A program made the translations under genes and the position numbers. The notes under the pieces are model-generated. The model saw only the letters and a list, made by a program, of their open reading frames with translations. It was not told the DNA's origin and made no database searches. From the sequence record DRR723986_8357: DNA of 50,290 nt. One strand, 5' to 3'. This document shows, piece by piece, positions 5,504-9,267 of this stretch. Position 1 is the stretch's first letter; each line of letters begins with the position of its first letter.

Positions 5504-6346
5504 TTATCTGACGGTTCCGGGCTTCGCGCCCGCAGCTTTCAGCAACATGGCAATCTTGTTACTTGATGCCCAGTCGAGTGGGCTTTCGCCGTCTTTGTTC
5601 TTGGCGTTCACGTCGGCACCGTTTCTAATTAGCATCTCAGTGAATCGAGGGTCCTCCAGTGATGCAGCATAGTGCAATGCTGTACACCCGAAGACATTCT
5701 TGACGCTATGTTTTGCACCTTTGTTGAGGAGTAGCTGGGTTGTCTTGACGTTGCGTCCGTTGACTGCGAAGAACAGGGCTGAATTCCCCCAGCCCGTCGG
5801 TCTATTGATATCGGTTCTCGAGGTGAGCAACTTCTTGAGGTCTTCAATTTCGCCAATTCCTGCAGCAACGTGAACTGGAAACTTGGTTTTGATTCCCAGG
5901 TCTTTGAGTTTGGTCGCTAGTTTTTTGTGGCCCTGGAATGCGGCTTCTTCGAGGGCGTTGCCACCGAATTTGTCCACCAAGGTGATGTCGGCTCCCTCTT
6001 TGATTAGGTATTCGACAATCTTGAGTTCGCCGACGGATGCTGCTTGATTGAACGCTGGCATCTTCCAGTTTGATTCACGCACGTTAACGGAAGCTCCTGC
6101 ATCGACAACGGTACGAACAATTTGCAAGTTCGCTGACGAAACAGCCTGCCATAGAACTGGATCGTGCTGCGCGTCACCGAAGTCAATGTCGTCCAGTCGC
6201 GTAACAAGCTCGGCCACTCTCGGCACATTCTCATCCCAGATCGCTTCAGCAAGTTGCTCGCGAACATGAGACTGCGCGCGTGCAGGTTGGCCCGTGCTCA
6301 AAATAAAGATGCATGCAGCGGCAAGAAATGAGAAGAATCTTTTCAA
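5504..6346 (-). CDS. Secreted ankyrin-repeat protein
   Basis: Repeated G.TALHYAA / GNSALFFAV / GADVNAKNKDGESPLDWA ankyrin motifs; probable TTG start at 6346 (GGAGA RBS) with a signal peptide ending ARA-Q. Confidence 0.9.
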   Translation of the reverse strand: MKRFFSFLAAACIFILSTGQPARAQSHVREQLAEAIWDENVPRVAELVTRLDDIDFGDAQHDPVLWQAVSSANLQIVRTVVDAGASVNVRESNWKMPAFNQAASVGELKIVEYLIKEGADITLVDKFGGNALEEAAFQGHKKLATKLKDLGIKTKFPVHVAAGIGEIEDLKKLLTSRTDINRPTGWGNSALFFAVNGRNVKTTQLLLNKGAKHSVKNVFGCTALHYAASLEDPRFTEMLIRNGADVNAKNKDGESPLDWASSNKIAMLLKAAGAKPGTVR

Positions 6347-6605
6347 CTGAGTTCTCCCAGCGGTAGTATGCGTCCAACGGTCACGACGGATCCGCCTGTG
6401 ACTCCGAAAGTAGCCGCAGGTAGGATTCCGCATTACAGTATATGCTCCCAGAGCAGTAGCGACGTCAGGAATTGATTGCGATAATCGGAATGTGAAGCTT
6501 AGGCTTTGGTTAAGAAGGGGTTGCATGCAGTTTCCGCTCAGTGCTGCGTTCTAGCGTTTTACGGCTGGATTTTATATTTTGAAACTCTGCGTTGCCCAGA
6601 CCGGA

Positions 6606-6634
6606 TTGACCAGGAAGGTGAGTTTTGCCACATT
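6606..6634 (+). promoter_or_regulatory. Candidate sigma70 promoter for the ncRNA-RT transcript
   Basis: TTGACC-17 nt-CACATT with TG at the extended -10 position, ~65 nt upstream of the inverted repeat. Confidence 0.35.
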
Positions 6635-6698
6635 GAAGAGGTAGTCGAGCTGCGGAGCCGAGGCAGTCAAGATTGGCCCGATTGCTGGGATTTTCATT

Positions 6699-6919
6699 CC
6701 GATGCAAACCGAGCCTCACACGAGGTAACCTCGTGGGTGAACCTTACTTAGGAATTTGACAGCGTGAGCGATGATCCGACTGCCGTCGGATTGGAGCTCA
6801 CGCACTCGCTTCGACAGGTTGAATCGCTCTGGCTCTGCGGCCGACTTATCTAGCCCTTTCTTGAGACCTGTATCGGAAAACAGGACGCGGATTAGAGTGG
6901 AGTCGCACGGTTGCATCGG
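6699..6919 (+). ncRNA. Putative retron msr-msd RNA
   Basis: Terminal inverted repeat CCGATGCAA(A)CCG (6699-6711) / CGGTTGCATCGG (6908-6919), followed on the 5' arm by AGC (candidate branch G 6713); hairpins CACGAGG-TAA-CCTCGTG (6719-6735) and GCGTGAGC..ATCCGAC-TGCC-GTCGGAT..GCTCACGC (6762-6803); ends 56 nt upstream of the RT. Confidence 0.7.
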
Positions 6920-6975
6920 CGCTGGAACGGTTACTGGACGCCTGTCTTATTTGTGTCTTACCGGGGCTAAACACC

Positions 6976-8325
6976 GTGAGCCTTACCGTCGGAGTTGATC
7001 GCAAGGAATTCTGCAATGTGCTCGCATTTCGCCTTGCCAAAACCTGGCTTGCCAGCCGGCTGCGTATCGCACAAATTCTTCGCAGGGCGTTAGGACGTTT
7101 TCCAAAGTGGTGTGAACAACTCTCCGTAGAGCTTCACGAGGAGTATGGTGACGCCCAATATGCCAGTCAGCGAGAATTGCGCCGGTTTCTGGACAAATCT
7201 CGGATTCTCCGTGGTGTTTTTCGCGGGAAGCGGAAGTTGCAGGTTAACCAGGCCTTCAAGGAGTCCCTGAGCGGACATCGTTGGGATGCACCCGAGGCGC
7301 GGACAGACGAACAGCTTCGTGATTTGCTCTGTCTGTCGTCGCATGACGCCCTCGATTGGCTCTTGAAGCCTCACTTTGTTCGTGAAACCAAAGTGGACCA
7401 CTACCGTCGGCACCTCGTTCGGAAACCCGGAGGACAGTATCGCCTGATTGAAGAGCCCCGCCCGCTACTAAAACGCGTGCAGCGAACAATAGCTGAGCAT
7501 ATTTTGCCGTTGGCTCCGATTCATGCCGCAGCACATGGCTTTGTGCCAGGTCGTTCAGTCTTCACTGCGGCTGCGGTTCATTGTGGTAAGAGGCTCGTAC
7601 TATGCATGGACTTGGCAGACTTCTTTGGTTCGATTGACCGACGTCGCGCCGGTGCTCTTTTCAAGATGTTTGGCTATCCATGGCGGGTGGCATCCAAACT
7701 GAGTTGCCTGTGCACTGCGCCACCCAAAGAAGTCTTCCTGCAGCAAGGAAAAACGTCGAACAGCCTTCCAAGTGAACGCCAAATCTGCAAGGCTGAACGC
7801 AGCTCGTGGGTTGGAGGAAGTCGTCTTCCGCAAGGAGCGCCGACGTCGCCTGGAATTGCGAATGCAGTTGCGTACCGGTTCGATCAGCGGATCGCGGGGC
7901 TGGCTAGCAGCGTCGGTGCAGAGTACACGCGATATGCAGATGACCTCACCCTCAGCGGCGACGCGCAATTCGTTCGGTCAGTGGCTAGAGTCATCCCATT
8001 AATTGGAGCGATCGCGATTGAAGAAGGGTTTGCAGTTAACTATCGCAAGACGCGTCGGATGTACTCAGGCCATCGCCAAACAGTTCTTGGGTTGACGGTC
8101 AATCATACGCCGGCGGCATCACGAAATGCGTTCGAGCAACTCAAGGCAATCCTGTACAACTGCGGGCGGTATGGCCCGCAATCACAGAATCGAGACGAGA
8201 TCGTGAATTTTCGCGAGCATCTCCGCGGTCGAATCAGCTTCGTTGGAGCGGCGCATTCAAGCCGGGCGAAGAAGCTCAAAGATCTGTTTGACAAAATACA
8301 GTGGGATGAATCTGAAGCGGATTAG
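6976..8325 (+). CDS. Retron-type RNA-directed DNA polymerase (reverse transcriptase)
   Basis: RT motifs KPGGQYRLIEEP, HAAAHGF (region X-like), DLADFFGSI, LPQGAPTSPGIAN, YTRYADDLTLSG, region Y-like VLGLTVN; no maturase, endonuclease or Cas1 domain visible. Confidence 0.92.
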   Translation: MSLTVGVDRKEFCNVLAFRLAKTWLASRLRIAQILRRALGRFPKWCEQLSVELHEEYGDAQYASQRELRRFLDKSRILRGVFRGKRKLQVNQAFKESLSGHRWDAPEARTDEQLRDLLCLSSHDALDWLLKPHFVRETKVDHYRRHLVRKPGGQYRLIEEPRPLLKRVQRTIAEHILPLAPIHAAAHGFVPGRSVFTAAAVHCGKRLVLCMDLADFFGSIDRRRAGALFKMFGYPWRVASKLSCLCTAPPKEVFLQQGKTSNSLPSERQICKAERSSWVGGSRLPQGAPTSPGIANAVAYRFDQRIAGLASSVGAEYTRYADDLTLSGDAQFVRSVARVIPLIGAIAIEEGFAVNYRKTRRMYSGHRQTVLGLTVNHTPAASRNAFEQLKAILYNCGRYGPQSQNRDEIVNFREHLRGRISFVGAAHSSRAKKLKDLFDKIQWDESEAD

Positions 8326-8355
8326 GCAACGTCCTTCTCAGCATCTGTCTTTGTT

Positions 8356-9267
8356 TCAGTCTCGAGCACGGTCGTCCTTTAGGAAGGTGGCAAGCTTACT
8401 GAGTTTGTCCGTGTTGATCAGATCGACTTTTGCTTGTTGTAATTCTTTCCAAATAGCGGGCGATTCCGGCGTAGCCCAGAAGCGAACGAGCTGGCCATTT
8501 CGGTGGGCTGTTGCGACCCAATTGTGCAAACGATGTTTCTCTTTTTCTGGAAATGGCCCGATGCCACGCCACACAAAGTGTTTGCCCCAATGATCACTAA
8601 TGAGCGGCATTAAGTGCGGTGGGTTGTTCATCCCGAGGTCGGCAATGCGGCCGTCTACACCGGCCCACCTTACCGGCTGCGCTTTGAGTTCTGACGTGGG
8701 GCGATTTCCTGAGATGACCACCGTGATTGGGCGCGAATCAATTTTGCCCTCACGCACCTCGGTAAGCATGTGGTTGTACTTTTCGAGGATCTCGTGAAGC
8801 TTGGCGTAGGTCGCTTTGCCGTTGGTCTTAATGTCAACCAAGAGGATGAACGGTGCTCGTTCTGAGACGACGAATCCGGAGTTGGACTGAACGATTTTCT
8901 GGAGCGGTTTTAGGTACAGCGATTCGATCGTACGTTCGGGACGCAACTGGGAGCGATCATGACCGACTAGTAGTTGGTTGCCTTGCAGGAAAATGTCCAC
9001 CTCGACACTTGCAAAGCCCTGATCTAATGCATCGTGCAACGGCCTTGGGTGCAGGTAGTCGTTGTGAGCATGCCCAAGCGACTTGGATTCGGTATCGCGG
9101 GCGGGGACTGGCGTTTTGATCTGCCCGAGGACAGCAGCAGTCGGGCTCAGTAGCAGCGCAATGGCCACTATCAGTCCACTTTGAATCCCGCGAATCGAAA
9201 AGTGCCGACGACTAACGGATGTGTTTTCAGGACTTGGAAGAGAGGCGTTGGAGATCGTGGTTAGCAA
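8356..9267 (-). CDS. PLC-like / glycerophosphodiester phosphodiesterase (Aim6-like), probably exported; start uncertain
   Basis: HAHNDY, ALDQGFASVEVDI, LLVGHD, LLVDIKT, VRFWATP, VDLINTD; hydrophobic signal upstream. Confidence 0.85.
   Translation of the reverse strand: MLTTISNASLPSPENTSVSRRHFSIRGIQSGLIVAIALLLSPTAAVLGQIKTPVPARDTESKSLGHAHNDYLHPRPLHDALDQGFASVEVDIFLQGNQLLVGHDRSQLRPERTIESLYLKPLQKIVQSNSGFVVSERAPFILLVDIKTNGKATYAKLHEILEKYNHMLTEVREGKIDSRPITVVISGNRPTSELKAQPVRWAGVDGRIADLGMNNPPHLMPLISDHWGKHFVWRGIGPFPEKEKHRLHNWVATAHRNGQLVRFWATPESPAIWKELQQAKVDLINTDKLSKLATFLKDDRARD

Follow-up and report, generated by a model that had tools for sequence, protein, structure and literature searches.

Retron cassettes consisting solely of a structured RNA (msr-msd) and a reverse transcriptase (RT) gene have been described for a branch of RT clade 2 and for RT clade 11 by Mestre et al. 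(2020, PMC7736814), who note consensus msr-msd structures for clade 11 and pose as an open question whether such effector-less retrons depend on unknown effectors encoded in trans or act through another mechanism, with a different function. The SPIRE survey (PMC13712802) distinguishes clade11-A from clade11-B on the basis of two published msr/msd models. Clade11-A, whose model is named 'OutgroupA', is reported without an accessory domain, with Pseudomonadota, Actinomycetota and Acidobacteriota given as its hosts; those given for clade11-B are Mycobacteriales and, at low confidence, Planctomycetota. Here, we analyze a locus in the sequence record DRR723986_8357 (50,290 nucleotides (nt), one strand; hereinafter the window, with all coordinates counted from its first letter), which comes from a Pirellulaceae-like genome and contains a retron-type RT gene (6976-8325, plus strand) preceded on the same strand by a conserved non-coding RNA (ncRNA; 6642-6851). 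The best explanation of the locus as a whole, to which we assign a probability of about 0.8, is a two-part, stand-alone clade-11 retron.

The RT is encoded by an intact open reading frame (ORF) of 449 amino acids (aa) with a GTG start codon, and the motifs HAAAH (7522-7536), YADD (7933-7944) and VLG (8083-8091), which had been pointed out from the sequence before, are all in place. The Pfam domain RVT_1 covers residues 148-375 (9.2e-21). A PADLOC search started with this protein identifies RT_other (2.9e-117, 390.8 bits) and RT_outgroup (1.5e-111, 371.6 bits) as the top models, both matching over nearly the full length, followed by RT_XIII (287.7 bits, match from residue 81) and RT_III-A; all 25 families listed are retron RT models. 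In a sequence search against the PDB, the RT of Ec86 is the best match (2.6e-26) and retron RTs make up 13 of the 15 hits, the remaining two being the RT of a group II intron (2e-4) and an 'RNA-directed DNA polymerase' chain of 9n69, an entry that Foldseek lists as a retron I-A complex. When the AlphaFold2 (AF2) model of the RT (predicted local distance difference test score (pLDDT) of 91) is used as the query for Foldseek, the first 17 matches listed are all retron RTs, and the DRT2 structure appears at rank 25, under all of them. The best NCBIfam match, retron_St85_RT (1.5e-50), lies under the cut-off of that model, and the group II (1.1e-10) and Drt2 (1.9e-8, 33.9 bits against a cut-off of 390) models score far lower. 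Among 36 relatives, Y320, D322 and D323 of the YADD motif (residues 320-323) are invariant and A321 is conserved in at least 90%; the family consensus is H-x-A-A-H for region X (HAAAH) and V-L-G for region Y (VLG), with G372 of the latter invariant. Judged by these comparisons, the RT is a retron-type enzyme and not a member of the group II, diversity-generating retroelement (DGR), UG/Abi or defense-associated RT (DRT) families; the grouping with non-retron clades that had been envisaged as a possible outcome is not seen, given that PADLOC, PDB, NCBIfam and Foldseek all favor retron RTs. Residues ~256-281 (7741-7818) form a poorly conserved insertion between RT motifs, modeled with pLDDT of 53-60.

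For comparative analysis of the region upstream of the RT gene, 80 loci with RT relatives from at least five phyla, i.e., the best relatives of a single query, were gathered, and a further 30 loci (L081-L110) were drawn from genomes of the family of L001, in which 119 of 401 genomes match the RT at E<=1e-40; the weaker matches in this family span the RT core only and may represent other retron types. A scan for terminal inverted repeats reveals long a1/a2-like repeats just 5' of the RT in many of the loci, with a 5' arm that ends in CCAA and is followed by G; in the window, the same scan finds 6643-6660 paired with 6829-6846, a repeat longer than the one formed by 6699-6711 and 6909-6920 that was previously taken as the boundary of the RNA. 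A MAFFT alignment of the sequences 5' of the RT from the window and from 16 Pirellulaceae loci contains one strongly conserved element that consists, from 5' to 3', of a variable arm, GGACCAA-G, a variable hairpin, a conserved GAGG/CCUC hairpin, a UUGA linker, a long conserved hairpin, GGUUGG, and a variable 3' arm. A window-including MAFFT alignment (A2) misplaced the CAAG anchor of the window, which was hence kept out of the model, so that the covariance model R1 derives from an independent MAFFT alignment of 15 Pirellulaceae homologs (A3). The RNAalifold consensus of A3 comprises 45 pairs, and compensatory changes are seen in 29 of these; 92.8% of the cells are paired, compared to 78.0% in shuffled alignments, and none of 500 shuffles attains any of five measures. 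When the partners are slid by 1-3 columns, pairing falls to 32-40% and the number of compensatory pairs to 9-13. R1 matches the window over its full length at 6642-6851 on the plus strand (115.6 bits, E 3.9e-33), and its two other matches in the window are minus-strand echoes of near-palindromic hairpins. The minimum free energy (MFE) of 6642-6851 is -95.3 kcal/mol (z -5.45, equaled by 0 of 200 shuffles), and the MFE structure reproduces the outer helix of the consensus along with three hairpins. An Rfam search of positions 6000-9000 yields no retron family and two chance-level hits only, to a miRNA and a snoRNA.

The outer helix is formed by 6643-6670 (a1, with UCAA at its 3' end) and 6819-6846 (a2, with UUGA at its 5' end), and in the homologs all 10 of its pairs show compensatory changes. 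Directly 3' of the a1 strand, which ends in CCAA or UCAA, follows G6671, the candidate branching (priming) base, which is invariant in the 15-sequence MAFFT alignment. Hairpin 1, on the msr side (6675-6715), varies in both sequence and length; all seven of its model pairs show compensatory changes in the homologs, and five of the seven form in the window. The highly conserved hairpin 2 (6719-6735) has a GAGG/CCUC core with a 3-nt loop and is paired in 100% of the cells, and hairpin 3 (6762-6803), a long msd-side stem-loop, consists of two helices that are 97-98% paired, with compensatory changes in 8 of 14 pairs. A 3' linker (6804-6818) connects hairpin 3 to a2, and its last base, G6818, is predicted by the retron rules to be the first to be copied; beyond the RNA, the spacer up to the RT start (6852-6975) shows no alignment among homologs. 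Because a homolog model built without the window hits this segment and the consensus fold covaries, the conserved RNA is placed at 6642-6851, closed by 6643-6670 and 6819-6846, rather than at 6699-6920. The original prediction of a structured, msr-msd-like RNA just 5' of the RT on the same strand is thus borne out by the R1 match and by the covariation analysis of homologous upstream regions that it had proposed, and the two hairpins that it described are hairpins 2 and 3. The layout deduced from the alignments is that of a retron, namely, a structured ncRNA beside the RT, a1/a2 closure, msr hairpins and an msd stem-loop. The ncRNA of Ec86, with its a1/a2 repeats and a G directly after a1, follows the same logic. 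In the single-sequence MFE structure, the a1-proximal GUCAA (6666-6670) pairs with UUGAC of the family-conserved linker (6755-6759) and not with UUGA at 6819-6822, so that the closing helix might alternatively pair with this part of the linker.

Although the seeds of R1 come from Pirellulaceae only, the model matches the RT strand just 5' of the RT in 71 of the 80 loci, with 70 full-length matches and a partial one in L011. Among the loci L081-L110, the match is full length in 29 of 30 (partial in L104), including the 15 seeds and two near-duplicates of seeds. For a wider alignment fitted to the model (A4), the window was combined with 55 loci with R1 hits; L001-L004 were left out (three duplicates of seeds and a close Pirellulaceae relative), and 56 rows were retained after one partial minus-strand row was dropped. 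In A4, the column of position 6671 holds G in 55 rows and a gap in one, and the column of 6818 holds G in all 56. The rows are most alike in hairpin 2 (mean pairwise identity of 0.76), followed by hairpin 3 (0.57), the outer arms (0.32) and hairpin 1 (0.22). Hairpin 3, together with its flanks, is retained across Planctomycetota, Acidobacteriota, Pseudomonadota and Verrucomicrobiota. In Pirellulaceae, the closing helix is longer and the RNA measures ~205-215 nt, as opposed to ~165-190 nt in the remaining phyla. A FastTree phylogeny of the RT from the window and 79 locus RTs (L028 apparently fell under the 250-aa filter) is coherent with respect to phyla: 6 phylum labels require 6 changes, against a minimum of 5 and a mean of 42.7 for shuffled labels. 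Local synteny is observed in two subgroups of loci.

In agreement with the original prediction, no conserved effector gene adjoins the RT. When ORFs of at least 90 aa from the 5 kb around the RT were clustered for 81 loci, only the RT proved to be common (81/81); the clusters that rank next are other frames of the RT gene itself, and the first real neighbors reach 8 loci. No small ORF (30-140 aa) recurs in more than 5 of 108 distinct loci, the set that remains after three duplicates are dropped. The flanking genes of the window do not occur near the RT in any of the other 110 loci, save for an unrelated-looking ankyrin match in L014. The RT ends with its thumb region, with no C-terminal fusion. 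No effector is encoded beside the RT or recognizably within it, and neither the genes shared among the 81 loci nor the RT itself recognizably include the linked or fused effector by which the tripartite types I-XIII are defined.

The PADLOC 'outgroup' model is tied to clade 11 because the table in the SPIRE survey gives the clade11-A model the name 'OutgroupA' (PMC13712802). When the locus is compared with the clade-11 stand-alone cassettes, the best hidden Markov model (HMM) matches are the same, the ncRNA is located directly upstream of the RT, there is no recurrent accessory protein, and the hosts found here (Acidobacteriota, Pseudomonadota, Actinomycetota and Planctomycetota) match the described range; no difference is apparent, the likeness being drawn from HMM matches and descriptions. 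Because the RT models, the upstream ncRNA and the absent effector all match the description, the locus very probably belongs to the stand-alone retrons of RT clade 11 ('outgroup'). It adds to an effector-less lineage that is already described and is not a new kind of system; the novelty originally attributed to it does not hold given the (msr-msd)-RT cassettes of RT clade 11 in Mestre et al. 2020 (PMC7736814). Retron-Eco5 (Ec107) and the Ec107-like branch of clade 2 are likewise reported as bare ncRNA and RT with no associated protein, but the RT clade differs (180.8 bits for RT_Ec107-like against 390.8 for RT_other), the Ec107-like RTs lack the N-terminal extension, and the best stretch of the match covers query residues from 282 onward only. 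The next-best model after those of clade 11, RT_XIII, represents type XIII (the Mx162/Mx65 kind, RT clade 10), for which Mestre et al. (PMC7736814) describe a linked SWIM/winged-helix protein, often along with a HEAT/ARM-like protein, and a correlation with host 16S that suggests vertical inheritance; the window contains no SWIM zinc-finger/winged-helix neighbor. Among solved structures, Ec86 (Eco1; 7v9u, 7v9x) is the closest both in sequence (2.6e-26) and in fold (Foldseek E 4.5e-19, TM-score of 0.79 normalized to the target, identity of 24-26%), but its RT is ~320 aa long, lacks the 135-residue N-terminal extension and, according to the title of 7v9x, works with an effector. A DRT2-like rolling-circle reading was considered and set aside: the RT does not belong to the Drt2 family, and the a1/a2-plus-G layout of the RNA is that of a retron.

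Upstream of the RNA lies a promoter-like element (6606-6634, plus strand; TTGACC, a 17-nt spacer and CACATT) that ends 8 nt 5' of the closing helix. The pattern TTGAC-N17-19-NANNNT is present at a fixed place, 5-10 nt 5' of the helix, in 14 of the 18 Pirellulaceae-type loci including the window, compared to 41 of 3000 random windows of 74 nt. A stricter consensus promoter scan does not list the TTGACC/CACATT pair because the -10 element matches at only 3 of 6 positions, and the relaxed pattern was then tested against the controls; this element may function as the promoter of the locus. Transcription from it would start at ~6642 and yield an RNA that carries 6642-6851 and probably the RT gene. 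The RNA would close on itself through the long a1/a2 helix, and the RT would bind the msr-side hairpins, that is, hairpin 1 and the conserved hairpin 2, and prime from the 2'-OH of G6671. Copying would then run from G6818 back through hairpin 3, the predicted template of multicopy single-stranded DNA (msDNA), towards the AU-rich linker at ~6738-6761, and would yield a ~55-60-nt msDNA attached to the RNA through a branch. This prediction rests on rules from a retron census (10.1101/2024.01.25.577267), by which the branching base and the first copied base usually are G and termination occurs before an AT-rich stretch, all three of which are fitted by this RNA (G6671, G6818 and the AU-rich stop). 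For clades other than 2, 9, 10, 3 and 4, RT-DNA production is given as intermediate in the relevant part of the census, which does not name clade 11. An msDNA probably is made in the manner described.

Several observations weigh against this interpretation or narrow its basis. Regions X (NAxxH, with H the most conserved) and Y (VTG, with G the most conserved) define retron RTs (PMC7736814), and here they read HAAAH and VLG, so that H and G are kept but N is replaced by H and T by L. R1 has no match in nine of the 80 loci (L033, L037, L042, L058, L067, L068, L070, L043 and L071), four of which are from Actinomycetota, and two of which, L043 and L071, are cut at contig ends. The conservation values obtained from A4 lean towards the model to which it was fitted. 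At ~42 nt, hairpin 3 is short for an msd stem and unusually conserved. The evidence for the RNA, the priming and the msDNA at this locus comes from sequence analysis only, and a search of sequencing runs listed no RNA run, but contig-level DNA sets that share at most 0.34 of the words. Membership in clade 11 is based on HMM names and a literature link. The RT tree includes the 80 best relatives of a single query, and kin share labels, so that its phylum coherence is no proof of vertical descent. Finally, the search for neighbors covered the window and the flanks of the loci, and an unlinked effector may be encoded elsewhere in the genome. With these limits, the locus provides a cleanly delimited Planctomycete example, complete with a promoter-like element, RNA boundaries, a candidate branching G and a predicted template, of retrons whose mode of action is an acknowledged question; added to this at the family level are one RNA family that occurs with the RT across phyla, in 71 of 80 loci, a conserved msd-side hairpin and an RT tree that follows host phyla.

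The rival explanation that survives best, albeit an unlikely one, is an ordinary anti-phage retron with a toxic effector in trans that is held in check by RT-msDNA until infection. In the literature surveyed, the functionally studied retrons all act with an effector, a trans effector is named as one possibility by Mestre et al. (PMC7736814), and the present effector search covered the window and the flanks of the loci. However, no gene is common within +/-5 kb of the RT in the 81 loci, and, according to Mestre et al. (PMC7736814), most hosts of orphan retrons have no homologs of known retron-associated proteins. The window shows no defense island, with no PADLOC hits at 1e-5 among 20 large ORFs at 13.7-48.4 kb, and the phylum-coherent tree and the conserved msd-side hairpin are unlike what is usually seen in fast-evolving defense modules. 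Given the phylum-coherent RT tree, the conserved msd-side hairpin and local synteny, long residence seems to account for the distribution of these loci better than rapid exchange, which is a hint of long residence rather than of an arms race. The role that we tentatively prefer to a trans effector, at somewhat less than even odds, is that of a long-resident chromosomal element in which RT-msDNA acts without a toxin in cis, outside toxin-based abortive infection and unlike a three-part abortive-infection module. A more specific proposal, which must be considered doubtful, is that clade-11 retrons are domesticated and largely vertically inherited, with the conserved msDNA and RT performing a cellular job and not abortive infection; if so, the msDNA could, e.g., bind a conserved protein of host or phage as a small DNA aptamer or decoy, or could act as a regulatory nucleic acid. 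In the literature searches, no paper was found that assigns a function to clade-11 retrons.

Next comes the possibility that the effector is built into the RT, with the N-terminal extension (approximately residues 1-135; 6976-7380) as the output domain. The extension is confidently folded (pLDDT ~89-91 in the AF2 model) and is present in Pirellulaceae homologs and in many homologs from other phyla, but nothing enzymatic or toxin-like matches this small helical bundle: the best results of structure searches (VIA Z 5.1, Foldseek E 2.1) are both within noise and no fold can be assigned, there is no Pfam hit, and the best Atlas score is 0.83, under the 0.9 level. Furthermore, the extension diverges fast, with 24-39% identity among Pirellulaceae homologs, and its invariant residues cluster where it joins the RT core, a position that fits a role in supporting the RNA or the RT; an output domain is considered improbable.

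Similarly improbable is a role of the RNA other than as the template of branched msDNA, i.e., as a cis-regulatory leader, an RT-binding element or another kind of complementary DNA (cDNA) template as in DRT systems. Compatible with such a role are the lack of reports of experimentally detected msDNA for this lineage in the literature surveyed, the deviating signature motifs, and hairpin 3, which is short and conserved, unlike the typical variable msd stems. The long, variable and covarying terminal helix, the invariant G, the hairpins and the RT on the same strand are instead the layout of a retron, retron RTs are much nearer matches of the RT than are Drt2 (1.9e-8, under the cut-off) or group II RTs, and the intermediate RT-DNA production given in the census for clades other than 2, 9, 10, 3 and 4 also speaks for msDNA synthesis, although clade 11 is not named there.

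An RNA spanning 6699-6920, closed by a 12-bp repeat and branched at G6713, as originally proposed, is very improbable because R1, built from homologs, sits at 6642-6851, ~60 bases further upstream, the closing helix of which is 6643-6670 with 6819-6846, the proposed 5' arm (6699-6711) is the 3' strand of the covarying hairpin 1, in which G6713 is also contained, the 3' arm (6909-6920) falls into the spacer that does not align among homologs, comparable pairing is found in only 2 of 17 homologs, and the family-invariant G is at 6671. The repeat itself does exist: it has nine perfect pairs and a single bulged A, and its 5' arm is followed by AGC. The encompassing segment 6695-6925 (231 nt) folds with z of -3.76 on the plus strand (1 of 200 shuffles equal) and -3.20 on the minus strand, and the 9-nt contiguous match between the arms is reached in only 2% of shuffles. 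The region 6400-7100 contains 13 inverted repeats of at least 8 nt. When the homologs were examined for the repeat and the hairpins, as the original prediction had proposed, the hairpins were found to be kept, but pairing of the spacer with hairpin 1 was at chance in 15 of the 17 Pirellulaceae homologs, the exceptions being L095 (10 nt) and L082 (8 nt). The repeat may be due to chance or may represent a lineage-specific alternative fold; in a co-transcript that carries both ncRNA and RT gene, it would compete with the conserved hairpin 1.

The immediate neighbors of the retron in the window are genes for an ankyrin-repeat protein and a GDPD_2 protein, both confirmed to be on the strand opposite to the RT, and hydrophobic N-terminal stretches are seen in both translations; the genes beyond them encode DUF1569, TPR, TrmK and xylose-isomerase-like proteins. 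The ankyrin-repeat protein (5504-6526, minus strand) matches the PADLOC candidate model PDC-M72A (2.2e-27), probably because of the repeats, and its gene does not recur in the vicinity of the RT elsewhere. Outside the window, in L001, L085, L089, L090 and L091, a gene of the CMD family (PF02627) is located ~340-750 nt upstream of the RT start, which suggests a stable chromosomal site in that subgroup. In four distinct loci (L087:866-1087, L092:886-1107, L003:5282-5503 and L004:5391-5612), the ncRNA is directly preceded on the same strand by a 74-aa ORF that has no Pfam hit and occurs neither in the window nor in the other loci; its copies are 88-100% identical. Several Pirellulaceae genomes (G339, G256, G021, G073, G107 and G113) hold three or four retron-type RT matches, and many of the weaker ones are open frames of 550-690 aa that match in the RT core only, so that other retron types with fused or extended RTs probably are present in these genomes.

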